NCBI RefSeq assembly: GCF_013315695.1
Contig: NZ_CP054355.1
Source: Escherichia coli
GTDB taxonomy: Bacteria > Pseudomonadota > Gammaproteobacteria > Enterobacterales > Enterobacteriaceae
Strand: one strand, 5' to 3'
DNA length: 64,000 bases
The notes beneath the pieces are model-generated. The model made no database searches and was not told the DNA's origin. It saw nothing but the letters and a program-made list of their open reading frames with translations. Every line of letters starts with the position of its first letter. Positions within the stretch are counted from its first letter, which is position 1. Made by a program: the position numbers and the translations under genes. This document shows, piece after piece, positions 6,173 to 58,670 of the stretch.

Positions 6173-8143
6173 ATGTATATGAACGTAATCAGAAACGTCA
6201 TTTGTACATTAATCATACTCCCGATAGGGTTACAGGCAGAGACCAGTCATTCTTCTATGGCTAAAGATACAATCACCGTTGTCGCGACAGGAAATCAGAA
6301 CACGGTATTTGAAACGCCGTCAATGGTCAGTGTCGTCACGAATGACACGCCATGGAGTCAGAATGCGGTCACATCAGCCGGCATGCTGAAAGGTGTTGCC
6401 GGTCTCAGCCAGACTGGTGCAGGACGGACCAATGGGCAGACCTTTAATCTACGCGGCTATGACAAAAGCGGGGTACTTGTTCTTGTTGACGGCATCCGTC
6501 AACTCAGTGACATGGCAAAAAGCAGTGGCACTTATCTGGATCCGGCACTCGTCAAACGTATCGAAGTTGTCCGCGGACCAAACTCCAGTCTGTACGGCAG
6601 TGGCGGGCTGGGAGGTGTTGTGGACTTCAGAACTGCCGATGCAGCAGATTTCCTTCCCCCCGGAGAGACAAACGGTTTAAGTCTGTGGGGAAATATCGCC
6701 AGTGGTGACCACAGCACAGGCTCGGGGCTCACCTGGTTCGGTAAAACCGGAAAAACAGATGCGCTCCTTTCTGTCATTATGCGTAAAAGAGGTAATATCT
6801 ATCAAAGTGATGGTGAGCGCGCACCTAACAAGGAAAAACCTGCAGCCCTGTTTGCGAAAGGCTCTGTCGGTATAACAGACAGTAACAAAGCAGGTGCCAG
6901 CTTGCGTCTCTACCGGAATAACACCACTGAACCGGGCAATCCCACTCAGACACATGGTGACAGCGGCCTGCGTGACAGAAAAACAGTACAAAATGACGTA
7001 CAGTTCTGGTACCAGTACGCTCCTGTGGATAACAGCCTCATCAATGTAAAGTCAACTTTATATCTCAGTGATATCACTATCAAGACAAACGGTCACAACA
7101 AAACGGCAGAATGGAGAAACAACAGAACCTCCGGTGTTAATGTTGTCAACAGGAGTCATACTCTGATTTTTCCGGGAGCCCATCAGTTAAGTTATGGCGC
7201 TGAATATTACCGTCAGCAGCAGAAGCCAGAAGGCTCTGCCACACTATATCCGGAAGGAAACATTGACTTTACATCGTTGTATTTCCAGGATGAAATGACA
7301 ATGAAAAGCTACCCGGTTAACATTATCGTCGGTTCCCGCTATGACCGGTACAAGAGCTTCAATCCCCGTGCCGGAGAACTGAAAGCCGAACGCCTGTCCC
7401 CAAGGGCGGCGATTTCAGTCTCACCGACAGACTGGCTGATGATGTACGGCTCCATATCCTCTGCATTCCGTGCCCCCACAATGGCAGAAATGTACAGGGA
7501 TGATGTACATTTTTACCGCAAGGGTAAACCCAATTACTGGGTACCTAACCTTAATCTGAAACCAGAAAATAACATTACCCGTGAGATTGGCGCAGGTATT
7601 CAACTGGACGGCCTGCTTACAGGCAATGATCGGCTGCAGTTGAAAGGCGGATATTTCGGAACGGATGCCAGAAACTATATTGCCACGCGCGTGGATATGA
7701 AACGGATGCGTTCTTATTCTTATAATGTATCCCGGGCCCGTATCTGGGGATGGGATATGCAGGGAAATTACCAGTCTGATTATTTTGACTGGATGCTTTC
7801 TTATAACCGCACGGAAAGTATGGATGCCAGCAGCAGGGAATGGCTGGGCTCCGGCAATCCTGACACACTCATCAGTGACATCAGTATACCTGTTGGTCAT
7901 GGAGGAGTTTCTGCCGGATGGCGTGCTGAACTTTCGGCAGCAGCCACGCATGTGAAAAAAGGCGATCCCCATCAGGCTGGCTATGCCGTACATTCCTTTT
8001 CACTGTCTTATAAGCCTGTAAGTGTTAAAGGCTTTGAGGCATCAGTGACTCTGGATAATGCCTTCAACAAGCTTGCCATGAATGGCAAAGGAGTGCCGCT
8101 TTCAGGCAGAACTGTCAGTCTTTATACCCGTTATCAGTGGTAA
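6173..8143 (+). CDS. TonB-dependent outer-membrane heme/hemoglobin receptor (ChuA/ShuA family)
   Basis: 656 aa; N-terminal TonB-box-like DTITVVA; blocks YGAEYYRQQQKPEG, SAFRAPTMAEMY, YWVPNLNLKPE and C-terminal YQW closely parallel ChuA. Confidence 0.8.
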   Translation: MYMNVIRNVICTLIILPIGLQAETSHSSMAKDTITVVATGNQNTVFETPSMVSVVTNDTPWSQNAVTSAGMLKGVAGLSQTGAGRTNGQTFNLRGYDKSGVLVLVDGIRQLSDMAKSSGTYLDPALVKRIEVVRGPNSSLYGSGGLGGVVDFRTADAADFLPPGETNGLSLWGNIASGDHSTGSGLTWFGKTGKTDALLSVIMRKRGNIYQSDGERAPNKEKPAALFAKGSVGITDSNKAGASLRLYRNNTTEPGNPTQTHGDSGLRDRKTVQNDVQFWYQYAPVDNSLINVKSTLYLSDITIKTNGHNKTAEWRNNRTSGVNVVNRSHTLIFPGAHQLSYGAEYYRQQQKPEGSATLYPEGNIDFTSLYFQDEMTMKSYPVNIIVGSRYDRYKSFNPRAGELKAERLSPRAAISVSPTDWLMMYGSISSAFRAPTMAEMYRDDVHFYRKGKPNYWVPNLNLKPENNITREIGAGIQLDGLLTGNDRLQLKGGYFGTDARNYIATRVDMKRMRSYSYNVSRARIWGWDMQGNYQSDYFDWMLSYNRTESMDASSREWLGSGNPDTLISDISIPVGHGGVSAGWRAELSAAATHVKKGDPHQAGYAVHSFSLSYKPVSVKGFEASVTLDNAFNKLAMNGKGVPLSGRTVSLYTRYQW

Positions 8144-31389: not shown

Positions 31390-32662
31390 ACAGCACCTCC
31401 ACAGGATACAGCCGGGCAATCCGCCGGGCCGGGAACCAGGTGCCGATCAACGCAATCAGTACCGCAATCACCAGTACGCACGGCACCACAATCCAGGCAA
31501 AATTAAGCGGCGCGTCGAAGAGCATGACGCCAATCGCTTTCGCCAGCCCCCACCCGGCAATACATCCCAGCGCACCGCCAGCCAGCCCGCTGGACGCCGC
31601 TTCCAGGTAGAACAGCAGCATAATTTGCCACTGTCGCGCACCCAGCGCTTTCATCAAACCGATCTCTTTGGCGCGTTCCATAATGGTGCTGGTCATCAGC
31701 GAGGCGATCCCCATTGCGGAAGCCACCAGCGCCGCGACGGTAACGACCGCCATCAGCAACTGAATTTTATCGATCACCACCCCTTCGGACGCCGCGACCT
31801 GCCATACCGGGCGCACTTCCGCACCGGAAATCGCCTCTTCCAGCTGATGCGCGATCGACGACACATAGGCCGTGCAATACCAGAGGTCGTACTCTTCGGC
31901 ATTGAGCGCGTCCAGGTTTTCCCGCGCGCGGCGGGACAGTTCGTTTTCCGGCACCGTCAGCGCCGAGACGCGAATCGCCTGCACTTTTCCGGGGAGCCCC
32001 AGCAGGTGCTGTACCGTGCTTAGCGGCATCACCAGTTGGTTATCTTCATCGCCGCCGCTGGAGAGGATACCGCTGACGGTGACCTGCACTGCTTCGCCTT
32101 CGGTACGTAATGTCAGCTTATCACCGGGTTTCCAGCCCATTTGCCGCGCCAGCGCGTGCCCGACTAAGGTCTGCGGCTCTGCGCCTGCGGGTTCCTGCGG
32201 CCAGTCGCCGGTCACCTGCCAGTATGGGCTGACCGTTTTCTGCCCCGTCTCATATCCCTCTTCATCAGGAATATCCACTGGCTGACTGAAGAAAGTGCCC
32301 AGAATCCGCACTGGTTCTCCCTCCACGCTGGCTTCGCCGCCGAGCATCGGCGCAAACCCGACAATGTTGTTTCGCCAGAAGATATCTTTGATGTTCGGCA
32401 GCTCGGCTTCATCAAGAAAATCCTGACCGGAAAGCGGATTACTGCTCTCACTAAACAGCGCGGGCAGCGCAGCCTGTCCGGCGGGTTCAATCAAAATGTT
32501 CGCACCATAAGACTTCAGCTCTCTGGACATTTTGTCGCCGATATCAATGGACACCGCCAGCAGCGCCGAGATCAGGCTGGAGGCCAGAAAAACGGTGATT
32601 ATCGCCAGCACTTTGCGGCGTAAATTGCGCCCCCAGGATTGTCGTAACATCCGCCACAGCAT
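31379..32662 (-). CDS. ABC transporter permease (FtsX-like)
   Basis: 427 aa, same architecture as neighbour. Confidence 0.75.
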   Translation of the reverse strand: MLWRMLRQSWGRNLRRKVLAIITVFLASSLISALLAVSIDIGDKMSRELKSYGANILIEPAGQAALPALFSESSNPLSGQDFLDEAELPNIKDIFWRNNIVGFAPMLGGEASVEGEPVRILGTFFSQPVDIPDEEGYETGQKTVSPYWQVTGDWPQEPAGAEPQTLVGHALARQMGWKPGDKLTLRTEGEAVQVTVSGILSSGGDEDNQLVMPLSTVQHLLGLPGKVQAIRVSALTVPENELSRRARENLDALNAEEYDLWYCTAYVSSIAHQLEEAISGAEVRPVWQVAASEGVVIDKIQLLMAVVTVAALVASAMGIASLMTSTIMERAKEIGLMKALGARQWQIMLLFYLEAASSGLAGGALGCIAGWGLAKAIGVMLFDAPLNFAWIVVPCVLVIAVLIALIGTWFPARRIARLYPVEVLYGR

Positions 32663-32664
32663 GA

Positions 32665-34044
32665 TTATTCCTCCCTCATGTCGGCAGGAACAAACTGCTC
32701 CGGCGTTTCACGGAAGCGTTCATAGTTAGCCTCTGACGAGAAGAACCAGGTCTTGCCGCCATAGCTGTATTTGTAATCGGCTGAGGTATTGGTCAACGTT
32801 GAACCATCGACCGGATCGGTCACTTTAATAGTCATGACCGTCGAGAAGTAGTTCACCCCTGTCGCCAGTTCTTTACCGGGGATCACCAGCTCTTTTTCAT
32901 CATTGTGCCAGTTTTCAATCGGCACCGGGTTACAGCCACCGGCCTTGCCGATAGACGGAATAAAAATATGCACTCCGCAGGCGACGCAGATAACCTGATT
33001 GCCCTCCATGACATAACCCTGATCGCCGCACAGCAGGCAGGCGTCGAACACCACGCCAAAACGCAGCTTGTCGGGATAGCGGTTAATCACGAAGAAGCGC
33101 ACCGCTTTGCCATCGTCCGCCACCCAGACGAAACGATGCAGTTTACCGTCACGAAGCTGTTCAACCGGCAGGCGCACCATGCCATCGCTCCCCAGCGTTA
33201 CGGGCACGGCTTCAGAGAGTTGCGGCGGCTGCGAGGCCACTTTATCCCACCACAGTTGGCCTGCGATAACGACCACCGCGCAGCCGATTGTGACCAACCA
33301 CAGCCGCAAAGCGTTGCGACGCTGCGCCAGCGCCAGACGGTGAGCAATCGGTTCTTCGGTTTCCCGCGTCTGTCGAAAAGCCCGCAACAGCGCCGGAAGC
33401 CAGCACAGCGCCAGGGCCAGCAGCAGCGCGGCTCCCGCCCAGTTATACAGCGCCGTGTTATTTGTGACTTTCGCCACGAAGCTCAGCAGTGATTTTCCCA
33501 GCGGAACAACCTGTAATTTCATCAGCAACAACAGCAGGTTGCCGCTCAGCGGCAGCCAGATCATCACCAGCAGAATCAGCGTTAACGGCCAGTACAGGCC
33601 GCGAATACGCCGCAGCAGCATCGCGCAGAGTACGCCCGCCAGACAGAGGATCGCAAAAGCGAGAACGACGGCCGTCAGGTTTAACAGCAGGTCAGTATTC
33701 AGCACATGCGTACTGGTCAGCCCGCCCAGATTAGGGTCCAGCGCCCAATGGCGGGCAGCGCCGAAAATCAGAATCCCCTGCCACAGATAGCGGATACGCG
33801 TTGAAGCCCACCAGAAACTGAGGACAAACAGCAGCGATACCATGACCTCCGCCCCAACCAGCAGCAGTTGTACCGGTTGGCTGCCGTGAATAAACAGTCC
33901 CGCCAGCACGCCGGCAATCAGCCCGGTCAGCAGCGTCCAGGTCAGCGGACGTAAAGAGGGAGGATCGTTTCGACTCCAGAGAACACCGGAAAGAAGCGCA
34001 ATGCAGAAAAAGACCTGTAGCGTCGTGACGAAAAAGTAACTCAT
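32665..34044 (-). CDS. Polytopic membrane protein with Cys-rich C-terminal periplasmic domain (Fet/cFtr cluster component)
   Basis: 459 aa; multiple TM helices then CLLCGD...CVACG motif. Confidence 0.6.
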   Translation of the reverse strand: MSYFFVTTLQVFFCIALLSGVLWSRNDPPSLRPLTWTLLTGLIAGVLAGLFIHGSQPVQLLLVGAEVMVSLLFVLSFWWASTRIRYLWQGILIFGAARHWALDPNLGGLTSTHVLNTDLLLNLTAVVLAFAILCLAGVLCAMLLRRIRGLYWPLTLILLVMIWLPLSGNLLLLLMKLQVVPLGKSLLSFVAKVTNNTALYNWAGAALLLALALCWLPALLRAFRQTRETEEPIAHRLALAQRRNALRLWLVTIGCAVVVIAGQLWWDKVASQPPQLSEAVPVTLGSDGMVRLPVEQLRDGKLHRFVWVADDGKAVRFFVINRYPDKLRFGVVFDACLLCGDQGYVMEGNQVICVACGVHIFIPSIGKAGGCNPVPIENWHNDEKELVIPGKELATGVNYFSTVMTIKVTDPVDGSTLTNTSADYKYSYGGKTWFFSSEANYERFRETPEQFVPADMREE

Positions 34045-34147
34045 AACTTCGACTCTGTACGGCGGGTTGAATTAAGCGACGGGCATATGATCGGTCTGAC
34101 CAACGCGCCAGAAGGGGGAATCCTCCTGGCGCGTTGGTTAGTCGGTT

Positions 34148-34678
34148 TTAGTTCAGACCGACATATTTAAACTCGTAGCTCACATCAAACGGTTTCCACC
34201 AGCGGCCTACGCCTGTTTCGCTGTCAGTATGGCGATGCATCCCGGCTTTTGACGGCGGTTCAATGTGGTAGGTCACTTTATAGTTGCCCACGCCCATCAT
34301 TTTGATGTTCGCGCCATAGTGCGGGCCATCGCTGGCAACCATCGGCATGAAGGTGCCTTCCTGTTTTTCGCCCGTGTCGTTGTTGACCAGGGTGTAGCTG
34401 ATGGTCAGGTACGGGATCCATTCCCCTGCGCCAAAGCCGTTTTTATTGCCTTCTACAGCGTGGATATCCGCTTCAAGGTGAACATCGGCTTTTGCTGCCG
34501 GTAAGCCCATGCCGCGCGGTTCCATATCAATCGGTTGCAGGTAAACGGCCGCCAGCTCCATTTCATTCATGGTGACAGGCTCGCCTGCCGGGTACTCTTT
34601 AAAAGCAAACGCGGCTGGCGCAATGAAAATGCTGGCCATCACTGCGCTGGCAATCAGGGTTTTCTTCATGGTCATCAA
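34148..34678 (-). CDS. fetP: P19/FetP-family periplasmic iron-binding protein
   Basis: 176 aa with signal peptide; immediately downstream of FTR1-family permease as in FetMP / cFtr1-P19 systems. Confidence 0.7.
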   Translation of the reverse strand: MMTMKKTLIASAVMASIFIAPAAFAFKEYPAGEPVTMNEMELAAVYLQPIDMEPRGMGLPAAKADVHLEADIHAVEGNKNGFGAGEWIPYLTISYTLVNNDTGEKQEGTFMPMVASDGPHYGANIKMMGVGNYKVTYHIEPPSKAGMHRHTDSETGVGRWWKPFDVSYEFKYVGLN

Positions 34679-34715
34679 ACGTATCCTCTCGTCTAAAACA
34701 ACGGCTATACAACGA

Positions 34716-36662
34716 TTATGGGTTATTTTTTATCGTCTCCCCGGGAACCGCGCTTTTGCGCCGCATCACCCACAGCGCCACCAGCGCCGCGAGCAGCAAT
34801 ACGACCTGCGGTAACAACGTTTCCACGTAGGGATAAATCCCCAGCCAGCTGATTTCAGGGAAGCCGTTAATCAACGTAGGCTGGAACAGTTTGCCTTCCA
34901 CCAGTTCCAGAACGCCTTTGCCCGCAAAGACGAAGGCCATCAGATACATGAAACTGCCGGTAAACATAAAGAAGGGTTTCAGCGGCAGGCGCACCACTGA
35001 GTAACGCATCACCAGCCAGGCGAGCAGCAGCACCACGCAGCCAATCACAAAACCGGCGCCAATCGCCATATGGCCGGATACCGTGTTTGCATCGCCAATC
35101 AGAGCGTAATAGAACAGCACCGTTTCCGCCCCTTCGCGGTACACCGCCAGGAAGCTGGTCAGCCATAGTCCGACCAGGGAGCCTCGCGACAGGGAATGAG
35201 ACAGTTTGCCTTCCAGCCAGGCTTTCCAGTGGCGCGCTTCCACTTTGGACAGCAGCCAGTAACTCATAAAGAACAGCATCACGACGGCAATCAGCATCGT
35301 TATGCCTTCCAGCAGTTCACGGCTGGCGCCGGAGTTAGTAAACAGCATCTGGAAGATAGCGGCGGTGATGACGCTGGCGATCAGCGCCACAATTACCGAC
35401 TGACGAATAAGCGGCAGCTTATCCTGATGGTTGTTTTTCACCATGTAGGCCACGATTGCCGCAACAATCAGCAGCGCTTCCAGCCCCTCGCGCACGATGA
35501 TCATCAGACTATAGAGCAGCAGACTCCACTGGGTTTCTTCGCCTTCGCCCAGCATCGTCACGGCTTTTTGCAGATCCTGCGCCAGCGCGCTGGCCTCTGC
35601 ATTCAGGCGCTCAACCGGCTGACCGGCCTTCATCAGACTGACCAGGCGGGTAAAATACGCCTCCAGCGTGGTTTTAAATGCCGAATCGCGAGAGCCGATT
35701 TTGTTTTCCATGCCGCTGGCTTCGAAGCGGTCGAAGTAGGTATCCTGGATATCCAGAATCGCATTCTTCGCATCGCCGCCCTGATAGCGCGCTATCGCGT
35801 CCTGAATGCTCTGGTTAATTCCCGTCGTCACCTCAGCCCAGTCGGTGCGGTTATTTCCCTCGTCCGCCGCCGGAATGTTGTCTGCGCTTTGCGCTGCGGC
35901 AACCTGCTGATCGTCACGGGTGGTTGGCAAGCCGGGTAAGATATCCTCGATATCCTGTAGCAGCGTAGTGACCTGATAGGAGACATCGTTGAGATGGTCA
36001 GGTTGCGCGGTCAGCGCAATCAGGGATGAGAATTGTTGGTTAATGGAGGCGGCATCTTTTGCAGAACGGTTTTGTCTGAGGGACATCTCCATCTCAGAGT
36101 TTTTAAAGCCCTGATAGTGCGCCTGTTGAACGTGCTGACTGGCAACGCTGTAATTCCCGGCCTGATATTCAGTGACCGCCTGCGCCAGCAGATCGTCGAT
36201 CGTCCTGAAACTCTCCTGCCAGTGAACGGCAATGTCGTCCCTGGACAGCGCGTTGTGCTGCTCTTCGGCCACCAGACGATGTCCGCCATCCAGCACCGGT
36301 TCCACTTCGCGCAGTGCGGCTTTCAGCCAGTCAATGCGCGCCTGGACGTCAGCGAGCGGTTTTTTCTCGCCAATCATTCGACGGATCTCGCCGAATGCGC
36401 TCTCCATCTCGTAACTTTTGCGCGCGGAAATGTTGATGCGGATCGGCCCTTCCAGGTTCTCGAACACCTCAAAATAGGCCATTTGTACCGTGCGGCGCGC
36501 CTCGTCGGCATGCTGTTGCTGATAAAGTTCCGCTGTTTTATCAAGACGTTGCTCGATATCTTCAATCAAAGGCGCATAATTCGTCGACGCCCAGACACTC
36601 ATGCTTATAAACAAGCCAAAGAGAGTAACCAACAAAGAGTTACGGAAGTTACGCACGTGCAC
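34716..36662 (-). CDS. fetM: FTR1-family iron permease with large N-terminal periplasmic domain (FetM-like)
   Basis: 648 aa; REGLE motif (IVREGLEALLIVAAIVAY) typical of FTR1 permeases. Confidence 0.8.
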   Translation of the reverse strand: MHVRNFRNSLLVTLFGLFISMSVWASTNYAPLIEDIEQRLDKTAELYQQQHADEARRTVQMAYFEVFENLEGPIRINISARKSYEMESAFGEIRRMIGEKKPLADVQARIDWLKAALREVEPVLDGGHRLVAEEQHNALSRDDIAVHWQESFRTIDDLLAQAVTEYQAGNYSVASQHVQQAHYQGFKNSEMEMSLRQNRSAKDAASINQQFSSLIALTAQPDHLNDVSYQVTTLLQDIEDILPGLPTTRDDQQVAAAQSADNIPAADEGNNRTDWAEVTTGINQSIQDAIARYQGGDAKNAILDIQDTYFDRFEASGMENKIGSRDSAFKTTLEAYFTRLVSLMKAGQPVERLNAEASALAQDLQKAVTMLGEGEETQWSLLLYSLMIIVREGLEALLIVAAIVAYMVKNNHQDKLPLIRQSVIVALIASVITAAIFQMLFTNSGASRELLEGITMLIAVVMLFFMSYWLLSKVEARHWKAWLEGKLSHSLSRGSLVGLWLTSFLAVYREGAETVLFYYALIGDANTVSGHMAIGAGFVIGCVVLLLAWLVMRYSVVRLPLKPFFMFTGSFMYLMAFVFAGKGVLELVEGKLFQPTLINGFPEISWLGIYPYVETLLPQVVLLLAALVALWVMRRKSAVPGETIKNNP

Positions 36663-39606: not shown

Positions 39607-42594
39607 TTAAGGCTGTTTTTTGTACTGACTGACATCAACTGCTCGCAAAGGACGATACTTCCCTTCAGCCAGCTTCTTATTGTTTTTCCAGATATAGTCC
39701 CCTGTCAGATTAATGTGCTCCCAGCCCAGCGGAGACAAATGTGACAACAATTGCTCATTAATATGTAGCCCTTTCTTTTTCAGCAGGTTAATGGCGTTTT
39801 CTATATATACGGTATTCCACAAAGTGATTGCGGCAGTGAGCAGCGTAAGCCCACTGGCGCGGTAACTCTGGTTTTCAATACCACGATCCCTTATTTCTCC
39901 CAGACGATGCATGAAGACAGCTCTGGCAAGGGCATTCCGGGCTTCCCCTTTGTTCAGACCTGCCTGAACCCTACGACGAAGCGCCGGATCGCGGAACCAG
40001 TCCAGCATGAACAGTGTTCGCTCAATACGACCAATTTCTCTTAACGCCTTAGCAAGGCCATTCTGTTTCGGATAACTGGTCAATTTTTTCAGCATCAGAG
40101 AAGCGGTCACTGTTCCCTGTTTTATTGAGGTCGCCAGTCTCAGAATTTCATTCCAGTGTATTTTTATCTCTTTGATATTCAGGGGGGTTGTGGAGATAAT
40201 TGACTGTAGAGCAGGATAGTTATCAGCTTTACCTTGAATAAACAAACGTTTGTCATGCAGATCCCGGATCCTTGGGGCAAAAGCGAATCCCAGCAGATGC
40301 ATTAGTGCAAAAACATGCTCCGTGAAACCTGCTGTATCGGTGTAATGTTCCGTTATATCAAGGTCACTTTCGTGATACAGAAGACCATCAAGTACGTGGG
40401 TGGAATCACGAACACGACTGATTACTTTGGTATAAAACGGACTATATTGATCTGAGATATGCGTATAAAACTGCACCCCAGGTTCCTGACCGTACTTCAA
40501 ATTAACCTGACCGGCATAGCGCCCATGACTGCCAACCCTAAAATTCTGGCCGTCAGAGGATGAGGTGGAACCGTCTCCCCATAATGCCGCCAGCGGTCGT
40601 GACTTCTGGGCATTAACCAGTTCTGCCAGTGCAGCAGAGTACGTTTCATCACGGATGTACCATGCTTGTATGTTTTCCAGCGAAGCTCGTGTGGTTCCCG
40701 GACAGGACTCTGCCATTTTTTCCAACCCTAGATTGATGCCGTCCGCCAGGATAGTGGTTAGTAGTAAACGATTATCCTGAGGACGGATTAGCGGATTCTT
40801 AAGATGAGTAAAATGTCGCGAGAAGGCAGTCCATCGCTCGACTTCATCAAGTATCTCTGTAATTTTGGGGTGCGGTAGCATGTTGTAAATCAGGTCGGCC
40901 AGGGGAGAGACTGTTGAAGGAACGCTGTTATCCAGTGGGGTGATCTTTACACCTTTATCTGAAATATCCACATCAGGAAGCTCCCCTGCGACAGCCATTG
41001 CGTTAACTTCCTCCAGACGGGAGGCCAGTAGAGTCAGTCTGGCATTAAGATAAGCCCCGCATTCTGTGCCAACAGGTAAATTTAATAGGTTATTATTTAA
41101 TAACTTTTCGAAATCATCGTTAGGCATAAGATAATCATCAAAGTTTTTGTAGCGCCGGGAGCCCCTGACCCAGATATCACCCGCCCGCAGCGCCCCCTTT
41201 AGCTCATTCATTGCGCAAATTTCATAGTATTGTCGGTCAATGCCTGAGGGGGTGACCACCATCTTTCTCCAGCTCTCAGGAATGAAATCCAGTGGTGCCG
41301 ATGCAGGAACCTTTCGTAGCTGTTTACGGTACATATCACGAATAGTTTCAAGGGCATCATTAAGCGGCAACGCTGCCGAAGTGGCTCTCAGTTGCAGGGC
41401 CGATAGAAAACGAAAAGAATATTTGCGCAATGTACTGAATTTTTCGGTAATAAGATGAAGCGGCTCAAAATTATCCTTACGTGCAAGAAGCTTTGTTTCC
41501 TCCAGACTGGCGACAAAATCGTCCCACGGTAACACTCGTTCAATAGCAGACAGAGGATCTTCGCCTGCATTGCGTGCATCCAGGATAGCCTGGCCAACAG
41601 AAACATACTGACGTAACTTTTGCTGTATCAACTTGCCCGTTTTCTGAAGACGCTCAGCCTGCTGATGTTTTGCCCGACTGAACATGCTGCCTAGAATACG
41701 TTCATGCAGTTCTATAATTTCATCAATGATTGTGGCTCTGGCCTCAGTCAGTACACAGACCATCGTTGCGTATCGACGAGCAGGGGAAAAATCAGCCAGA
41801 TCGCGACTGCTCATTTTGCGGCCCTCACGCGCGAGTTTCAGCAATCGGTTCTGGTGAACGGTTCTCTCCACTCCTTCCGGCAGCGCCAGAGCTTCAATAG
41901 CGTTAAGGCGGTCAATGTGTTGCAGGACATTCTTTCCATTGATTTTCCCTGGAGGTTGAAGCAGCCACGTCAAACGGGATATTTGTTTTTCATTTGTCAC
42001 CAACAGGGCATCAAGCGCAGATTTATGCGTGATATCAAGGTGCGCATTCAGCGTTGTATACACCGTTTTATCACCCAGTGTCATTGCTTCTGCACAGGTA
42101 CGTTCCAGAACATCAATGCCTGGAATAATAATTCGCTGTTGATGCAGGTACTTTAGTAACTCCTCTGCGATAAGTATGCCTCTGTCCGTTCTGGTAGACA
42201 GAGGGAGCAGATGCCGGATACATTCTTTCTGAAGTGCACCGTTAAAGGCTTTCAGTTCAAGATATCGATAAAGTTCCCTCATATGCTCACGTCTGGTGGT
42301 ATCACGACCGGAAACGTATTCCTGCCAAAGTTCTGCTGATAACTTAAGTCGAGCGCCAATGGTTTTTAGCAATTTTGCGGGTGGGGATGATTTTTTATCC
42401 GGGGCAAACCCAATACTTTTCAGATAACAGAGAAGAACGGCAAAACCAAACCGGCTGGCAGGTTTACGGTGAGCATTGATAATTGCCAGATCCTGCTCAC
42501 TGAAATACGTCATTCGAGTCAGTGTTAACTCATCGTCTGGCAATGCCAGTAATGATTCTCTTTCCGATAGAGAAAGAATCTGCCTCCTTGCCAT
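39607..42594 (-). CDS. tnpA: Tn3-family transposase TnpA
   Basis: 995 aa; C-terminal DDE region typical of Tn3 family; ends inside IR. Confidence 0.9.
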   Translation of the reverse strand: MARRQILSLSERESLLALPDDELTLTRMTYFSEQDLAIINAHRKPASRFGFAVLLCYLKSIGFAPDKKSSPPAKLLKTIGARLKLSAELWQEYVSGRDTTRREHMRELYRYLELKAFNGALQKECIRHLLPLSTRTDRGILIAEELLKYLHQQRIIIPGIDVLERTCAEAMTLGDKTVYTTLNAHLDITHKSALDALLVTNEKQISRLTWLLQPPGKINGKNVLQHIDRLNAIEALALPEGVERTVHQNRLLKLAREGRKMSSRDLADFSPARRYATMVCVLTEARATIIDEIIELHERILGSMFSRAKHQQAERLQKTGKLIQQKLRQYVSVGQAILDARNAGEDPLSAIERVLPWDDFVASLEETKLLARKDNFEPLHLITEKFSTLRKYSFRFLSALQLRATSAALPLNDALETIRDMYRKQLRKVPASAPLDFIPESWRKMVVTPSGIDRQYYEICAMNELKGALRAGDIWVRGSRRYKNFDDYLMPNDDFEKLLNNNLLNLPVGTECGAYLNARLTLLASRLEEVNAMAVAGELPDVDISDKGVKITPLDNSVPSTVSPLADLIYNMLPHPKITEILDEVERWTAFSRHFTHLKNPLIRPQDNRLLLTTILADGINLGLEKMAESCPGTTRASLENIQAWYIRDETYSAALAELVNAQKSRPLAALWGDGSTSSSDGQNFRVGSHGRYAGQVNLKYGQEPGVQFYTHISDQYSPFYTKVISRVRDSTHVLDGLLYHESDLDITEHYTDTAGFTEHVFALMHLLGFAFAPRIRDLHDKRLFIQGKADNYPALQSIISTTPLNIKEIKIHWNEILRLATSIKQGTVTASLMLKKLTSYPKQNGLAKALREIGRIERTLFMLDWFRDPALRRRVQAGLNKGEARNALARAVFMHRLGEIRDRGIENQSYRASGLTLLTAAITLWNTVYIENAINLLKKKGLHINEQLLSHLSPLGWEHINLTGDYIWKNNKKLAEGKYRPLRAVDVSQYKKQP

Positions 42595-46094: not shown

Positions 46095-46231
46095 ACCATC
46101 CTGCACTTATGTTGCACAGAAGGAGTGAGCACAGAAAGAAGTCTTGAACTTTTCCGGGCATATAACTATACTCCCCGCATAGAGCAACAGCTTCTATGCA
46201 GTTTCTTGTTAGCCCCGGTAATCTTTCCTAC

Positions 46232-46330
46232 TCGCCAAAGTTGAAGAAGATTATCGGGGTTTTCGCTTTTCTGGCTCCTGTAAATCCACATCAGAACCAG
46301 TTCCCTGCCACCTTACGGCGTGGCCAGCCA
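46232..46330 (+). ncRNA. copA: CopA antisense RNA region of the IncFII replicon (approximate)
   Basis: Leader sequence gttgaagaagattatcggggttttcgcttttctggctcctgtaaatccacatcagaaccagttccctgccaccttacggcgtggccagccac recognised as the CopA/CopT target region; boundaries and strand inferred. Confidence 0.4.
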
Positions 46331-48238: not shown

Positions 48239-48826
48239 GTTATTCTCCATATCAGATAAATGGCACCTGTATTTCAGGCATCCTGAACATTGCAGCACAC
48301 AATGAATAACACCTTGTTTTGTGAAATAAATCACAAAATATAAAATCTCGACTTAATACGGAAAAAACTCTGTGCTACTCAGAACTGTACGGTCATACTG
48401 CCCGACCGGATATTAAAAAAAGCAAATCTCATGCATTATTCAGCCTTCTGAATCCCTGGAGTAATGAAGGCTGCTTTTTTCGTTACACCCTTCCCCGGCT
48501 GCGCCGGTGGCAGTGTTCAGCCCTTTTTCGGGCAAACTGCTGCCAGTCTGTCCGGGGCGCAACACCGGCAGCCCGTCGCCATGCTTCTGCCGCTTCCATC
48601 CAGCGTCCACTGACCTCCAGAATAACGGCCCGGCTTCCGGCACGCTGCCAGCGCCAGACCTGACCGTTCCGTGAACTGTTTCTGAATCCATTCATCTTTA
48701 TCACTCCTCTTTAACCCGTCAGTATTATGGTGTTAAATAATCTACTGAATTGGCTTCCTTTCGGGTACGGAAGTTATTTCCTTTTAAGCCTTATTTCCCT
48801 GCCTCCTCTCTGATGGAGGCTTTTTT

Positions 48827-51174: not shown

Positions 51175-54100
51175 TCAGTCTCCGCCCAGGGTTTTCTCTT
51201 TCTGCAGGTCACGAACCATATCCCGCTCCATCTGCTGCAGACGCTCCTGCAGCAGATTTTCCCGGGCAACCTCCCGGACCGCTTCCCGCTCCCGTTGTGA
51301 TTCACGCAGCACACTCTCCGGCAGTGCGGTTTCCCGTTCAGATATGGCAGACCGGTCACGCTCCTGTCCGGCAATATCCCTGACAGCCAGCTCTGTTTTG
51401 CCATCCGGCAGGTCAGGTTTGTTCTCTGCCATTTTCCTGACAATTTCATCTGCGCGGCGTTCCGTTTCACGGCGGATGGCCTCTTCAGCCTGCCGCTGTG
51501 CCAGTACCTCTGCCGTGACCGGTTCGCCATTTCCGGCCCCCGGCTGGACGCTGTTATCCGGGATATCCCCCCACACGCGGCCACCGGTGATGGCACCGGG
51601 ATTCCACGGACGACCTTCACCGGCAATTCTCACCACCACACCGCTGTCAGGATTATCACGGGCAATCCGGACGCCATCCTGCATATTATCAGCCAGCAGG
51701 CTCTCTCCGTTACGGCTGCCCTGCAGGGCCACGAACTGCGCATCCCCGCTGCCTTTCACCCGTCCTTCACCACTGAATCCCCGCAGCCCGTTTCCGTCAT
51801 CCGTGGTCAGTGGGTTCAGCCAGATACCAGCTGACTTGCCGTTACGGTCAAACGCCGGCAGTGCCACATACGGCTGCGGATATTTACGTCCCGGTGCAAT
51901 AAACCGTGCAGGGCTGTCTCCCCCGGCCAGCCCTGCCTGACGGAGAACGGCACGGCCTGCCGCCACGTCCCGCAGTTCCCGTGCCGTACTGAACAGCCGC
52001 TGCGCATTCATGACCTCCCGGTCCGGTTTCGGCTCCAGCACATCGTGGGCAGTTCCTTTCTGTACGGCATTGTTAATGGCATCCGTCCAGCCCTGACGGT
52101 TATCGGTGTACACCTGCACATGCTGCTTCATACGCGACAGGGCCACGTAGGCTGACTCAAAGCCGGCCATCAGTTTCCGGTTACCTTCCGTGCCTTCAAG
52201 CGCGATGGCAAAGGTTTCACTCGCCCCCTGCGCACCGTGGGCGGTGATGGCATAAGCCAGGTCAATATGTTGCTCTGCCCGCTCCTGGCCGGGGCGAATC
52301 ACCCGGGTCTGCTGTCCGTCTGACAGCGTGACACTGTCACCGGAAACCGCTGTCACCGTCCAGACGCTGTTGGCCACATAACCGCGCTCCCGGTCACTCT
52401 TCGTGAAGCGCATCCGGTCGCCGGTCCCCACCCGGATTTTGTCCGGGGTGTACAGTGTGACACCTTCAGCCACCGCCTCCCGGGGCGAAATCAGCCGCGT
52501 GTTACCTTCCGCATCCTCCAGGGTTATCAGCCCGTCATCCTTGCTGATACCGGCAATCCGGTGATACACACTATCCACCAGGGCAAGGGCATCCGGGTTA
52601 TTCTCCCAGGTGGAGAGACGACGCAGCTCCCCGTCACGTATATTCGCTGTGTTCAGGACAGGCACCATGACCTGCTCTTTCCCCAGCTCACCGGCCTTTT
52701 CCCGTGCATCATGAATCATGCTGTTCAGTACGCGCCGGTCCTCATTCAGGTGCGTGACAATCAGCGTCTGCTCCCGTGCTTCCGGTGTCCTGCCGGTATA
52801 GTCGCGGACAATGGCTTCATACAGTGTCATGGGGACATCCGGAAAAGTCTCACCTTTCAGCATCGCCTTCTGCTGCGCTTCTGCCAGTTTCGCTTCCTGG
52901 CTGTGACTGAACTCCGTCACGGAGTGCTCCGGTGCCCATGCGCCCTCCTGACGGGGAACCTGAGACGGTTTCACACTCTCAAGCCCGGACAGTGCCCTTT
53001 CCACATCCCGGTTAATCAGGCTGTATACCGCCTCCCGCAGTTCCGGCGTCTGACGCACAATCTCCTTCATGATGACCACATCGGCAGCACTGCGCGTCTG
53101 CTGGAGACGGAAAGGCTGACCGGGCGCGATGGCCTGCAGCTGGTCCGTGTCACCACTGGCCACGGCACGACCGCCACCGGCCGCAATCAGGGCGTATGCC
53201 CGTGCCATGTCGGTATTGCCCACCATTGAGCTCTCATCGAGCAGGAACAGCGTGTTGCTGAAATCCGGCGTTTCTCCGCTGCGCTGCTGCAGCTGCGTGT
53301 CATGCAGAAAGGACGCCAGCGTCTGTGCATCCACGCCGGCGCTGCGCATCTCACCGACCGCACGGTGCGTGGGCCCCAGCCCCACAACTCGGGGACGCTC
53401 ACTCGCCGGCAGCATGTTCACGGCTGACATCACCGCCCGGAACTGTGTGGTCTTACCCACACCGGCATAACCCTGTACCACCGTGAAACGGTCGGACGTT
53501 TCCAGTATCATACGGGTGGCGGCACGCTGTCCCGACGTTAACGTCTCCATGAGTTCGCCGGGTACTCTCTCCATCAGCGGCGTGACCGCCTCCTTACCTT
53601 CGAGAATATGGCGAAGAATACTTTTTTCTGCCTCATACGACGCACGGGAAACCAGCAGGCCTGTGCCATAGCCTTTTGCCACATCCACATACAGTAAGTC
53701 ACCGCGTTTTATCTGCGCATTGATTTCCCCTCCCAGTTCAGTAAAACCGGTTCCTTCTGCAGCAAACGACTTCGCCTCTGTCAGCAGGTCCACCATGCTG
53801 AAGGCCAGGTTTTTACTTTCCAGCACAGGAAGGGCCAGATGAATGGCCTGCTGTGCCGGCGTGTGCAGCCCGGTTTTCTGCAGACTGATAGCGGTTTCCA
53901 GCGATGTCTCACCGGCCCGCGCCTTTATCTGCTCAGAAACCACCGTAAAGGAGGGATGGCGGGCAAGTTTTTCCGCAGTACGGGTTTCATCCAGTGAGGA
54001 ATACAGCCGGACATCACGACCGCTGCGGGCCAGACCGTTCAGGGTGGCGTTGTCCATTGCCATCTGTGTGACGGAGGCAAACACCGTCGCACTGTCACTG

Positions 54101-56445
54101 ACGGAATGCCCGGGCGTTTCCACCCAGCCGTTCTCCAGCTTCAGTGCCGTGAACGGTGAATCAGCCACAGGCAGGGTGGCCGGTTCAGCCCGCCCCGGCA
54201 CAACAACCGTCATCGCATCTTCACTGACGGATGCCACCTGCAGGCGGTCACCGCCGGAGACGCGGAGTCCGGGAATTTTCCCTGTCACCCTCAGTCGCTC
54301 GCCGTCTGCCACCGGCATTTTTTCCGGCCGGAACAGCGACCAGCTGCTGTCCAGGGAGGAAATACGCACCACCTGCGTTTCGCCCTGCGCATCCCGCAGG
54401 GTCAGGCTGTGACTCTGCGCCGTCACCCGGTCGATAACATAGCGGTCATGACTGCGTGTCTCCGGGTTCCACTGCTCCATCACCATCCCCGGTCGGTACA
54501 TATCCCGCAGATAACGGCTCCGGCTGTCCAGCCAGACCGGTGACAGGGCGGTCATGGTCACCTCCGGGTGTCCGAGCACGCCCTGTGTTTTCAGCTCACT
54601 GCGAATGGCCTGTGTCAGTATGGCCTGTTCCCGTACCCCGCTGACCTGTGCCACGCTCTCTTCTCCGGCTTTCACGCTGGCCGCAAAATCTCCGGCCAGC
54701 CGGTCATAGCGGACATTCCGGTCCGGTTCACTGATGATGGTTGCCGGTCGCTGTTCTCCGCCCTGCCAGCGATACGTGTTCACCCCGGTATCCTTCATGG
54801 CCATCAGCGCACTGCCTGTACCGGTTCGCTGCCCGCTGTCGGTTATCAGGACCTGTACGTTATGACGTGCGGCACCGTCCAGCAGGGTTAACGTCTCTTT
54901 CAGGGAGAGTTTTTCGCCCTGGTCGACGATAACAGTACTGCCCGGCGTGAAGACCATGCCCTCCTGCAGCTGACGACGTCCGGTTATCAGCTCACCGGAC
55001 AGCCGTTCATCCTGCTTCAGGTTCATCTGCGAGCGACGGTCAGCAGCGATAATCTGCACCTCCCGCCCCTGCTCCCGGGCCATCATGACCAGTTCAGCCA
55101 CCCGCTCACGCTGCCCGGCTGCACCGCCCTGCCCGGACACAATGGCCAGCGACGGACGGTCCTGTGCCAGAACACTGACCGCATCGCTGTAACCAGCCGT
55201 CCGGGGGACACTTTTCTCCGGATGTACGGTCACCCGGTTCTGTTTCATGATGTCACGACTGAGTGCCCGGACGGACAGCTCATCGAGCACATGAATTCCT
55301 GATGTGAACAGCCCCTTCTCACGGTCGAGGGGGATAAGCTGCTCACGGCTGATGGCCTCATCGATACCGGCGCGTGCCCGTTCAATCACACCATTTTCCG
55401 GCGGCAGTATGCCGACCGTCCTGGCCAGCACGTCCGTATACGTGAACTGCACTTTTCGTTCACTTAATCCGGCAATCGCCTGTGTCACCGCCTGCTGCAC
55501 ATCCGGCCCGTCCTGTGAAGCAGGCCCGGGCGCCTGCGTGCGGATCTCCGCACGCTGATCCGCCGCGTCACGATATGCCCGGATGTCGAACCCGGTTTCC
55601 TTCAGCGTCTGCATCCATTCAGCCATTCTGATTTCCGGATCGACGTGCTGTTTGGATTTACGCGTATCCAGTGCCGCCACATCCCGGGATTTCAGCGAGG
55701 CGTCTTCCCCGACGGCCTCCCGGATAGCCTGTGAGCGTCCGGAAAAGGCCTCCACCGGTACGCCCGGCATCTCCCACATACCGTGCTTACCCACCACTTC
55801 GGTTTCATAGCCCAGCGCCTCAACCTGCTCTTTCAGTTTTTCCCGGTAGAGCCTGCCAAAGGCAATCTGATTAGCGTACACATTCTCAATGAACCCCGTT
55901 TTCCCCACTTTGTCACTGCTCAGTGTCTTCCACTCACCGTTATGCTGCGTGACATTAGCCACCACCGCATGCGTGTGTAACTGTGGTTCCTGATCGCGAC
56001 TGGTGTCGTGGTTAAACAGTGCCATCACCAGATTACCGGTCAGCACCGTTTCTGACTGTCCGTCCGTCATCACCCGTGTGGAGGCCAGCGCCTCCACCTG
56101 ACGAACAGCAAAGTCCACGGCCTGGTTATGTGCATCAATCAGGCGCTTATCGCCACCTAACATGGCCATCATGGAGACACTTTTGGGGGCGGAGAAGGTC
56201 AGGTCGTAGCCGGGACGATGCTTATTACTGCCATCCTGCATGCGGCTTAGATCCGCTCCGTCCGGCAGCCTTCCCTCCAGAAGACGGGTAAAAACATCCT
56301 TATCGACACTGCCCTGCAGTCCCAGCTGTTCAGCCCCCCTGCCGGCCCAGCGTTCTCCCATGCTGCCCAGTACATAGTAATTATCCTTGTCGGTATAATA
56401 GTTACCGGCACTTCCGGCCGATCTGACCTGCGCGATACTCATCAT
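51175..56445 (-). CDS. traI: Relaxase/helicase TraI
   Basis: 1756 aa; N-terminal relaxase, helicase Walker motifs; F TraI length and sequence pattern. Confidence 0.95.
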   Translation of the reverse strand: MMSIAQVRSAGSAGNYYTDKDNYYVLGSMGERWAGRGAEQLGLQGSVDKDVFTRLLEGRLPDGADLSRMQDGSNKHRPGYDLTFSAPKSVSMMAMLGGDKRLIDAHNQAVDFAVRQVEALASTRVMTDGQSETVLTGNLVMALFNHDTSRDQEPQLHTHAVVANVTQHNGEWKTLSSDKVGKTGFIENVYANQIAFGRLYREKLKEQVEALGYETEVVGKHGMWEMPGVPVEAFSGRSQAIREAVGEDASLKSRDVAALDTRKSKQHVDPEIRMAEWMQTLKETGFDIRAYRDAADQRAEIRTQAPGPASQDGPDVQQAVTQAIAGLSERKVQFTYTDVLARTVGILPPENGVIERARAGIDEAISREQLIPLDREKGLFTSGIHVLDELSVRALSRDIMKQNRVTVHPEKSVPRTAGYSDAVSVLAQDRPSLAIVSGQGGAAGQRERVAELVMMAREQGREVQIIAADRRSQMNLKQDERLSGELITGRRQLQEGMVFTPGSTVIVDQGEKLSLKETLTLLDGAARHNVQVLITDSGQRTGTGSALMAMKDTGVNTYRWQGGEQRPATIISEPDRNVRYDRLAGDFAASVKAGEESVAQVSGVREQAILTQAIRSELKTQGVLGHPEVTMTALSPVWLDSRSRYLRDMYRPGMVMEQWNPETRSHDRYVIDRVTAQSHSLTLRDAQGETQVVRISSLDSSWSLFRPEKMPVADGERLRVTGKIPGLRVSGGDRLQVASVSEDAMTVVVPGRAEPATLPVADSPFTALKLENGWVETPGHSVSDSATVFASVTQMAMDNATLNGLARSGRDVRLYSSLDETRTAEKLARHPSFTVVSEQIKARAGETSLETAISLQKTGLHTPAQQAIHLALPVLESKNLAFSMVDLLTEAKSFAAEGTGFTELGGEINAQIKRGDLLYVDVAKGYGTGLLVSRASYEAEKSILRHILEGKEAVTPLMERVPGELMETLTSGQRAATRMILETSDRFTVVQGYAGVGKTTQFRAVMSAVNMLPASERPRVVGLGPTHRAVGEMRSAGVDAQTLASFLHDTQLQQRSGETPDFSNTLFLLDESSMVGNTDMARAYALIAAGGGRAVASGDTDQLQAIAPGQPFRLQQTRSAADVVIMKEIVRQTPELREAVYSLINRDVERALSGLESVKPSQVPRQEGAWAPEHSVTEFSHSQEAKLAEAQQKAMLKGETFPDVPMTLYEAIVRDYTGRTPEAREQTLIVTHLNEDRRVLNSMIHDAREKAGELGKEQVMVPVLNTANIRDGELRRLSTWENNPDALALVDSVYHRIAGISKDDGLITLEDAEGNTRLISPREAVAEGVTLYTPDKIRVGTGDRMRFTKSDRERGYVANSVWTVTAVSGDSVTLSDGQQTRVIRPGQERAEQHIDLAYAITAHGAQGASETFAIALEGTEGNRKLMAGFESAYVALSRMKQHVQVYTDNRQGWTDAINNAVQKGTAHDVLEPKPDREVMNAQRLFSTARELRDVAAGRAVLRQAGLAGGDSPARFIAPGRKYPQPYVALPAFDRNGKSAGIWLNPLTTDDGNGLRGFSGEGRVKGSGDAQFVALQGSRNGESLLADNMQDGVRIARDNPDSGVVVRIAGEGRPWNPGAITGGRVWGDIPDNSVQPGAGNGEPVTAEVLAQRQAEEAIRRETERRADEIVRKMAENKPDLPDGKTELAVRDIAGQERDRSAISERETALPESVLRESQREREAVREVARENLLQERLQQMERDMVRDLQKEKTLGGD

Positions 56446-58670
56446 CAGAAATCATCTCCCGGCTCAACATCCTCCCCACGCTCCCGGTGCACATTAATGT
56501 TCACCTCTTCACGACGCTGCATCTGCTGCTGGATGTCCGGATGATTTTCCTGTTGCCATGCCTCATAAGCGGCCATATCCACCACTTCACCGGATTCACT
56601 GATCCCGGGTGGCAGTTGCTGTTCCATCTCTTCTTCCGGTTTCATTTTCAGCTCCTGCTCGATCCCCCCTGCCGGAACACTCACACCTGCATCTGACTTC
56701 TTATCATTGATGACAGAAGACACTGGCTGTTGTGGCTGTTGTGGCTGTTGTGGCTGTTGTGGCTGTTGTGGCTGTTGTGGCTGTTGTGGCTGTTGTGGCT
56801 GTTGTGGCTGTTGTGGCTGTTCAGCCTGAGTCACATCTTCTCCGGAGGCAACCTCCGGTTCAAAGAGGCTGGCCATCTGACGACCTTCTGCTTCCCTTGC
56901 GGCAAGTACGGCACTCAGACGGTTCTCCATTTCCGGGTTGATGTCACGCGGAATAAACTCCGGAGCGACCTTCGGTCGTGCCTGATATTTCAGAGAGAGT
57001 TTGACTGCCGGATACGGTCCGGGCAGAGTGACATAGCAGGTCAGATCCGGCAGAGACTGAATGTCGGAATAACTGACCAGCGTCTGACGCTCCATATCCT
57101 TACCGGTCGATACCCCGTCACGTACCGGGTCAGCACCGTAGGAATACTGCTCGCTGGCTTTCAGGTGCTCTTTCTCACCAATCTCACCGGCAGCGAACTC
57201 TGCAATCTTATGGCTCGGGGAACGGAAAAAAGCACGGGTGTTCATGACGTCAAACAGCGTGGCCGCCGCTTTCTCACCGTAGATATCTTCCAGCTGGGCA
57301 TAGGACTGGATACCAAACACATAACAGCCACCGAACTTACGGGCTTCCGGCAGGATCTCCACCAGGTCCGGCAGTTTGTGTAACGTGGGTAACTCGTCAC
57401 AGAAAAACCACACACGACGGTTACGGTTTTCTCCCATTGCCAGCAGACCACGAATGGCAATGGACAGCCACATGGAGATCACCGGCTTCAGGGAGGCATG
57501 GGTGTCGGCGTTCGACGAAATAAACAGCCAGCCGTTTTTCTGATCTTCCCGGACACCACGCATCCAGTCACGGATGGTAAAAGACTCACCGTTATGCTCA
57601 ATCCCCTGCAGGTAACGGATGGCTTTCACGTAGTTGGTCAGCACAGCACGGATGGAAATCGCCGTTTTCTCAATTTTCTCTTCCACCAGGTTGGCTGCCG
57701 GTGAATTACGCAGGAAGGTACGCAGTTTTTCAATTTTGATGGAAAGCAGTGTGTCCACCAGTTTGCTGTAGCTGCGGTTGGGGTCATTACGCATCAGGTA
57801 CGCCGCTTCCGCAAAAATGGTACGTCCTGAACCCTGCCAGAACGGGTCCTCTTTTGTACCCATAGGGATCAGAGTATTTGCGGTATTATCAAAATCCGGC
57901 TGTGTCAGGCACTCCTTCCACAAATCCCATGCGGCACAGCGGGCATCCAGCGGATTCAGGATTTTATCGATGGAGGGATCATAGTAACTTTTAACAAATT
58001 CCCCTGAACGGTCATAAATCACCACCATATCACCGCGCTGACGGGCATAGTTGGCCAGACGACGGATAACCTCCGACTTACCGGCCCCGACCGTGCCGTG
58101 CAGACAGAAGTTCTGGATTTCGGAATCCCGGATAATCGGCAGGTCGCCAATCCGGATATCGGAGTCCTTGCCGTCTTTTTTCAGCATCCGGGCCACTTCT
58201 TTCGGGTTATCCGTCAGCTGACGCCCGCCGGTCACCTCATTTTCACTCTGCTGTTTCCCCTGATGCCCCAGAATCCAGGAGACAACAAAGAAGGTGATCA
58301 GGCAAATAACCAGGGCCACGACAGACGCCAGAACGAATGCAGACCATAGCTGCTCTCCGCACCAGATCATATATTTATCATGCAGTACCTGGGCAGCGTT
58401 CATCCGGAAGGTTTTGCCGTAATACTGGATCTCATAGACCGGCTGGGATTTTATTAAATCCCGCATGCCTTCCAGTGACGTACACCACCAGTAAATACAG
58501 CCGTTGATAAACGTCTGCCAGCTTATTTTTACCCATAAGACCAGACCAATGAGGATCCAGAAAAAAATAAACAGGCAGTAAAGCATGATATTGGCGATCT
58601 GGCTGAACATGCGGATACGCATGGACGCAATCTGACCGCCCTGGGTCATATCCTTTGCGTTAAAACTCAT
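56445..58670 (-). CDS. traD: Type IV coupling protein TraD
   Basis: 741 aa; N-terminal TM helices, Walker A, C-terminal QQP repeats. Confidence 0.95.
56725..56818. repeat. Tandem 9-bp repeat (ggctgttgt, about 10 copies) encoding QQP repeats within traD
   Basis: Read directly; in-frame within traD. Confidence 0.85.

Follow-up and report, generated by a model that had tools for sequence, protein, structure and literature searches.

Introduction

Variable-number tandem repeats (VNTRs) in bacterial coding sequences are best known from surface or secreted proteins, where the length of the repeat affects adhesion or antigenicity. Repeats in the traD gene of R100 were reportedly noted as early as 1990. 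Two published systems lie closest to the locus considered here. The first is the "QQP motif" region of TraD, the length of which varies by plasmid, since it reads QPQQP in F and comprises 23 residues in R1 (Lang et al. 2011, Mol Microbiol 82:1071, PMC3245843). The C-terminal extension of TraD was called unstructured in the same work (Lang 2011, PMC3245843), and within the relaxosome the TraM tetramer is the docking site of the acidic tail of the protein (Wong 2011, PMC3159463, citing Lu 2008; PMC12117103). A groove of this tetramer takes the extreme C-terminal tail of TraD, and the engagement of TraM-bound oriT is believed to involve several tails of the hexamer, by avidity (Lang 2011, PMC3245843; PMC3159463; PMC12117103).

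The second system is a 9-bp VNTR in pSLT, the virulence plasmid of Salmonella Typhimurium, where it lies in traD (PSLT104; Hiley et al. 2019, PLoS One, PMC6459517). Capillary fragment sizing gave 5-19 copies across 220 Salmonella Typhimurium isolates and 1 copy in Clade I, and the copy-number ranges were genotype-specific (Hiley 2019, PMC6459517). The PCR primers used in that study bracket the QP(QQP)n tract of the pSLT gene. Here we describe a perfect 9-bp array in the traD gene of an F-like plasmid, its distribution in related plasmids, the way in which it probably changes and the part that it may play in the TraD protein.

Results

The traD gene and its surroundings

The window, by which we mean the whole 64-kb stretch of DNA that was analysed, belongs to an F-like plasmid of the IncFII type, recognized by the presence of CopA RNA, an IncFII RepA, AS-traI and AS-traG. 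The gene that carries the array lies on the minus strand (56445..58670) and encodes a protein of 741 aa, followed by a stop codon. The ORF list, Pfam, identity to TraD clusters and the annotation of matching records, which label the region traD almost throughout, all designate it as traD, the F-type type IV coupling protein. Pfam returned the N-terminal membrane domain TraD_N (PF12615, E 3.9e-34, residues 32-128) and TraG-D_C, together with TrwB_AAD_bind (PF10412, E 4.3e-117), the latter defining a TrwB-like nucleotide-binding / DNA-binding domain at TraD residues 172-561 (56988..58157, minus strand). With phmmer, the TrwB structures 1e9r and 1gl6 aligned to residues 160-573 (E 2.6e-47). Large TraD clusters of 717 and 723 aa are 94% identical to the protein of the window.

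The neighbourhood of the gene agrees with this identification. Directly downstream on the same strand, traI (51175..56445), which encodes the relaxase/helicase of 1756 aa, appears in the ORF list with a start that overlaps the traD stop by one base. Rfam places AS-traI at 53520-53596, and traD is flanked on either side by AS-traG and AS-traI, within the tra operon order traG, traT, traD, traI. Annotations of related plasmids give traD and traI in the same order. Judged from its sequence, the ORF of the window is the TraD of F-type conjugation, every defining feature that we checked, for TraD as well as for the QQP region, having been found. The initial annotation had named the gene traD and had placed the repeat in its C-terminal tail; the Pfam domains and the end of the TrwB homology at residue 573 bear out both points.

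The tandem array

Tandem Repeats Finder detected a perfect tandem array of a 9-bp unit at 56724-56821, with 10.9 copies, 100% matches, no indels and a score of 196; on the plus strand the unit reads TGGCTGTTG. In a scan of the entire window this was the only strong tandem repeat, the runners-up scoring 67 and 58. The array contains 89 consecutive matches at lag 9, for which our own arithmetic gives a chance of about 0.25^89 (about 1e-54) per position; the array is therefore not the product of chance.

Read codon by codon on the coding (minus) strand, the array begins in frame with CAG CCA and continues with CAA CAG CCA repeated ten times, all units being identical at the DNA level. The encoded tract is QP(QQP)10, which amounts to 32 residues (618-649 of 741). 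Its codons occupy 56724-56819, and the final 2 nt of the interval delimited by Tandem Repeats Finder are part of the Glu codon that precedes the tract. The initial annotation had located the array at 56725-56818, which is essentially the same interval, and its estimate of about ten in-frame 9-bp units encoding QQP proved exact. A plus-strand ORF at 56730-57383 (217 codons, MWLLWLL...) was rejected as a gene, since it reflects the repeat as read on the non-coding strand. No RNA family overlapping the array was found in Rfam.

Copy number in related plasmids

We measured copy number in related plasmids with a query of 431 nt centred on the tract, converting the length of the matched interval into a number of units. 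Matches were obtained in 3,972 PLSDB records and in 3,207 records of complete E. coli genomes. Counting was kept to complete records because assemblies struggle with the array. The listing of top-ranked matches favours long arrays, which match in two overlapping pieces and reach a higher summed score, and distributions were drawn instead from two evenly spaced samples (PLSDB and E. coli) of 58 informative rows each. Representatives of clusters at 90% identity showed 0-3 units only; variants that differ in copy number alone do not stand separately among them, which makes this set unsuited to a distribution. In the F-like allele family, three extra residues (DVP/EVV) precede the tract, and the count is one below the raw span.

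The interval length departed from 431 by whole multiples of 9 bp in 115 of the 116 sampled rows, and each sample contained 17 distinct copy numbers. The sole row that did not follow this rule, CP042640.1, carries four units, with a frameshift that lies downstream of them. The sample median was 7 units overall. Taking family membership of unread rows from BLAST identity, which makes it approximate, the median of the window's allele family was 10 to 10.5 units. Its range was 1-27 within the samples, and outside them it extends to 30. About a fifth of the sampled records have one unit, as in F (QPQQP). The distributions are not flat: the F-like family mostly has n = 1, and the window's family is centred on 10-14.

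We also fetched 23 loci and read their codons directly. These span 1-30 units, with n = 1, 3, 7, 8, 9, 10, 12, 14, 15, 19, 27 and 30 in the window's allele family, n = 1, 3, 4, 5, 6, 7, 9, 11 and 14 in the F-like family, and n = 10 in pSLT of strain LT2. Differences of this size are found between otherwise identical loci. Indeed, the 60 top-ranked PLSDB records have flanks that are 100% identical, lengths that differ by multiples of 9 and 13-30 units. Among the loci read directly, those with identical flanks have n = 3, 7, 14, 15, 27 and 30, and one further locus (L002, 99.7% identical flanks) has n = 1. Alleles with identical flanks also include tracts of 23 residues, the length given for R1 (n = 7; locus L007).

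The proposal in the initial annotation that the region varies in length among F-like plasmids is supported by the 1-30 units of the 23 loci, and a single copy number shared by all related plasmids, which would have contradicted it, is far from what the 17 copy numbers of each sample show. The same annotation had called the tract of the window "expanded". The word holds against F, with its one unit, and against the sample median of 7; it does not hold within the allele family, where ten is the median. Ten units is typical of the window's lineage.

A first question raised by such counts is whether the variation was produced by sequencing or assembly, through collapse or expansion of the repeat in consensus sequences. 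Assemblers are known to handle tandem arrays poorly, and some of the differences between public assemblies could be consensus errors. Moreover, there is a "partial" TraD cluster of 4,849 members, the representative of which stops one residue before the tract, and this suggests that short-read contigs break at the array. However, PCR sizing does not depend on assembly, and 5-19 copies were obtained by this method at the homologous site in 220 isolates (Hiley 2019, PMC6459517). All sampled differences but one were exact multiples of 9, and the unit sequence was perfect in the loci that were read. Older reference records vary as well (NC_019090, NC_019095, NC_019424, NC_020278), and arrays of 100-270 bp are easily spanned by single long reads. 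An artefactual origin is largely refuted by these observations, and we consider it very improbable as an account of the variation.

A second possibility is that the array acts as a contingency switch, turning traD on and off by frameshift. Simple-sequence repeats inside genes often work as phase-variation switches in other bacteria. Here the unit is 9 bp long, and a change by whole units never shifts the frame. The frame was kept through the array in 24 of 24 alleles, namely the window and the 23 loci, and it runs on to ...PGDDF in the loci read, except in L021, the only frameshift of which lies outside the array. Phase variation at this locus is ruled out by the length of the unit and the intact frame, and we leave it practically no probability.

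Origin of the length variation

The proline codon of the repeat distinguishes the allele families. It is CCA in every unit of the window's family, save that the single-unit allele L002 ends in CCT; it is CCG in every unit of the F-like E. coli family and in all but the last unit of pSLT. The sequence of the tail differs in parallel, with ...EVASGEDV...VSSVINDK in the window's family and ...DVPEVVSGEDV...VSPAINDK in the F-like family. Within each allele family the units are identical, apart from the terminal unit of a few arrays. This family-specific proline codon points to lineage-specific expansion, presumably by slippage-type events. One founder unit expanded separately in each lineage would give such codon purity, and an ancient conserved repeat would not be expected to do so.

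Closely related plasmids document the individual steps. The plasmids pAI1235P_P4 and pAI1235M_P4 (NZ_CP079124 and NZ_CP079135), which were carried by two colony types obtained from a single urine isolate of K. pneumoniae, differ over 30.9 kb by 2 SNPs in an IS element and by one unit of the array (14 vs 15), and the lengths of the two records are exactly 9 bp apart. Similarly, two E. coli plasmids from a pig farm (NZ_CP075482 and NZ_CP075466) are 36 bp apart in total length, and their arrays are 4 units apart.

These data are those expected of repeat misalignment. Whole units would be gained and lost by slipped-strand mispairing during replication or by unequal recombination. Since the unit is made of three codons, each such event would stay in frame and would lengthen or shorten the protein by Gln-Gln-Pro. 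Slippage had been suggested in the initial annotation, and the changes by whole units, the purity of the arrays, the identical flanks around different n and the one-unit difference between near-isogenic plasmids all favour it, with the qualification that unequal recombination leaves the same traces in the sequence. When single strands of the repeat were folded as DNA, no hairpin potential was found on either strand, the minimum free energy being 0 to -2 kcal/mol and no better than that of shuffled controls. Slippage stabilised by hairpins is therefore not indicated, and simple misalignment, for which a hairpin is not required, is the likely route of change. On slippage as such, the folding result has no bearing either way.

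It is also conceivable that units are gained and lost mainly through unequal recombination that depends on RecA and takes place between copies of the plasmid or between sister duplexes. Once replicated, an IncF plasmid exists in more than one copy, and the homology provided by an array of 100-270 bp is sufficient. Moreover, large jumps between alleles with identical flanks, such as 14 vs 27 or 30 units, are easier to obtain in this way than by single-unit slips. On the other hand, nothing in the sequence tells the two mechanisms apart, the closest pair of plasmids is one unit apart, which is typical of slippage, and an array of about 100 bp gives RecA little length to act on. We regard recombination as a possible but doubtful main route.

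The C-terminal extension of TraD

Because the homology to the TrwB structures stops at residue 573, residues 574-741 (168 residues; 56448..56951, minus strand) form an extension that is specific to TraD. It is composed of a poorly conserved linker, predicted to be disordered (about residues 604-689), which holds the repeat, followed by a conserved helix (699-722) and an acidic end. Conservation was evaluated as the frequency of the top residue in each column of an alignment of 45 full-length TraDs. The mean was 0.89 in the motor (residues 160-573), and the least conserved part of the protein was found at residues 611-640 (0.10-0.20, with gaps in 38-79%). Conservation rises again from about residue 661 to the C-terminus. 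An AlphaFold2 prediction based on the same alignment gave a pLDDT below 50 at residues 592-685, no secondary structure at 604-689 and a short helix at 699-722.

The last codons of the gene, identified by reading the sequence, specify the acidic tail DVEPGDDF (56448..56471, minus strand), the role of which in TraM docking is taken from the literature. This C-terminal tail is common to all E. coli-type alleles that were read to the stop codon, barring the frameshifted L021; the sequence of L008 ends one codon short of the stop. In pSLT (L023), TraD ends in ...DEPEPGDDF. The tail of the window's protein is identical to that of the representative of the 717-aa cluster (P0001), and the length and QPQQP tract of this representative agree with the description of F by Lang et al. 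(2011).

Among the 90%-identity cluster representatives, a QPQQP nucleus with 1-3 units is widespread in the more closely related TraDs. The distant TraDs (Klebsiella, Raoultella and Serratia types) lack the QQP repeat, and a longer, non-repetitive segment rich in Pro/Ala/Glu occupies its place.

Discussion

We propose that the array of the window is the known QQP variable-number tandem repeat of TraD and that it serves as a variable-length spacer in a disordered tether, changing in length by misalignment of its units; we put the probability of this reading at roughly 85%. The tract would sit in an intrinsically disordered, Pro/Gln-rich tether that links the membrane-anchored ATPase hexamer to the acidic tail. 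This tail would capture TraM tetramers bound at oriT, the tract acting as a spacer of variable length between the two. From the position and composition of the tract, its predicted disorder and the literature on the tail, we infer that it belongs to such a tether, and we take a passive spacer, as opposed to an element tuned in length, as the default reading. Tracts of 1 to 30 units are frequent in plasmids that are typed as conjugative, and so wide a range in circulating, mostly conjugative plasmids shows that the length of the tether is broadly tolerated.

One may ask, nevertheless, whether the length of the tract is a functional tuning knob. According to this proposal, the reach or stiffness of the tether from TraD to TraM and oriT would alter transfer, substrate specificity or susceptibility to male-specific RNA phages, and the mutability of the array would let plasmids adjust fast under selection, for example from phage. 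A difference in QQP length between F and R1 was noted by Lang et al. in their discussion of a plasmid-specific difference in R17 phage dependence, and phage resistance was proposed there as a driver of the diversification of coupling proteins (Lang 2011, PMC3245843), although the explanation was described as "under investigation" (PMC3245843). In our survey, expansions to more than 3 units are seen in no fewer than three lineages of traD, namely the CCA family (R100-like), the CCG family (F-like) and pSLT. Copy-number distributions also differ by allele family and by host genotype, which could reflect selection on length or simply descent; such lineage-specific ranges are equally expected of a VNTR that mutates stepwise and neutrally. 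Furthermore, plasmids with 1-30 units are common and typed as conjugative, and near-isogenic plasmids one unit apart give no sign of selection. We therefore judge an effect of tract length on these functions to be unlikely. In its strongest form, the proposal would make the QQP array an evolvable tuning element, the length of which sets the reach of the six TraD tails to TraM-bound oriT, and this we hold to be clearly improbable. If it were true, transfer efficiency, the choice of mobilised substrates or the entry of RNA phages could be adjusted within single outbreaks.

The scientific stakes are small, the feature being a documented polymorphism in a well-studied conjugation protein. Two practical aspects may still be of use. 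The array seems to change fast enough to serve as a marker for telling apart otherwise identical IncF plasmids, in the way in which it already serves as a VNTR for pSLT, and short-read assemblies of traD appear to break at it. Should the length of the tether matter for relaxosome docking, transfer or sensitivity to RNA phages, it would bear on how resistance plasmids of the F family fine-tune their transfer.

The QQP motif region described by Lang et al. (2011) belongs to the same protein, lies at the same place, in the C-terminal extension ahead of the domain that interacts with TraM, and is built of the same Gln-Gln-Pro unit; there is no difference in kind, the window simply having 10 units. 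The VNTR of pSLT lies at a site homologous to that of the window and also has 10 units in LT2, in this case with CAA CAG CCG as the unit and in a more divergent tail, whereas the plasmid of the window has an E. coli-type IncFII replicon and the unit CAA CAG CCA. With coding VNTRs that change by slipped-strand mispairing, the array shares perfect head-to-tail units, a unit length that is a multiple of three, stepwise polymorphism and a location in a disordered segment of low complexity. It differs from the surface or secreted proteins that carry such repeats in that the tail of TraD is cytoplasmic. The nucleotide-binding domain of TrwB from R388 is homologous to TraD residues 160-573, whereas the solved TrwB chains have no counterpart of the TraD extension of about 170 residues, of the QQP tract or of the TraM-binding tail. 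The feature is thus already known, as the QQP motif region (Lang 2011) and as the traD VNTR (Hiley 2019). To these descriptions our survey adds detail rather than a new kind of element, namely a range of 1-30 units, proline codons that are specific to each allele family, a one-unit change within one isolate, and contig breaks at the array.

Variation of the traD repeat among related plasmids

The closest comparison of repeat number comes from a pair of plasmids (L003 and L004; NZ_CP079124 and NZ_CP079135) from a single K. pneumoniae isolate, each carried by a different colony variant. The two loci differ only by one traD repeat unit and by two A/G substitutions, both of which lie within an ISEc23 transposase gene (locus positions 8849 and 9203). 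A one-unit allele of the window's own family occurs in NZ_AP029001.1 (L002; hits H164/H165). Its tract reads CAG CCA CAA CAG CCT, and its final proline codon is therefore CCT, whereas CCA is used throughout all the expanded arrays of this family. This allele might represent a stabilised or ancestral short form.

A single sampled record, from CP042640.1 (L021), had a locus length other than 431 + 9k. Its traD (locus 301-690) contains four QQP units followed by a frameshift downstream of the array, and the tail past the array includes a stretch of 16 residues (letters not shown) and ends at a stop. Because this region lacks an annotated CDS and mobility typing classes the plasmid as mobilizable, this traD looks like a pseudogene.

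The array also appears to affect assembly. P0017, the 596-aa representative of a cluster holding 4,849 "TraD, partial" sequences, terminates in EVASGEGVTQA, one residue short of the EQP(QQP)n tract (equivalent to window position ~56820, minus strand). An end at this position suggests frequent breaks in short-read contigs at the traD array, and copy number is consequently trustworthy only in complete or long-read assemblies.

Other features of the window

Four antisense RNAs annotated for F-like plasmids scored above the Rfam gathering thresholds, all on the plus strand: CopA (46179-46268), AS-pc02 (48402-48586), AS-traI (53520-53596) and AS-traG (62933-63018). None of these four Rfam matches in the window overlaps the traD repeat.

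Iron-uptake cargo genes (31379-36662, minus strand, and 6173-8143, plus strand) encode an FTR1-family permease, an FtrD-like/YHS protein, an FtsX/MacB-type permease and a second TonB-dependent receptor. The FtrD-like/YHS gene contains a weak 18-bp tandem repeat (33378-33429; 2.8 copies, 82% match, TRF score 58). A full-length Tn3-family transposase of 995 aa (39607-42594, minus strand; DDE_Tnp_Tn3, E 1e-147) has the iron-uptake cluster on one side and the IncFII replication region on the other. Two ALIL pseudoknots, the frameshift signal of the IS3 family, were found in inverted orientation with equal scores of 116.2 bits (14054-14170, minus strand; 25087-25203, plus strand), and the ~11 kb that they flank includes a TonB-dependent receptor gene (20447-22708). 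Together, the pair and the enclosed ~11 kb may form a composite-transposon-like arrangement.
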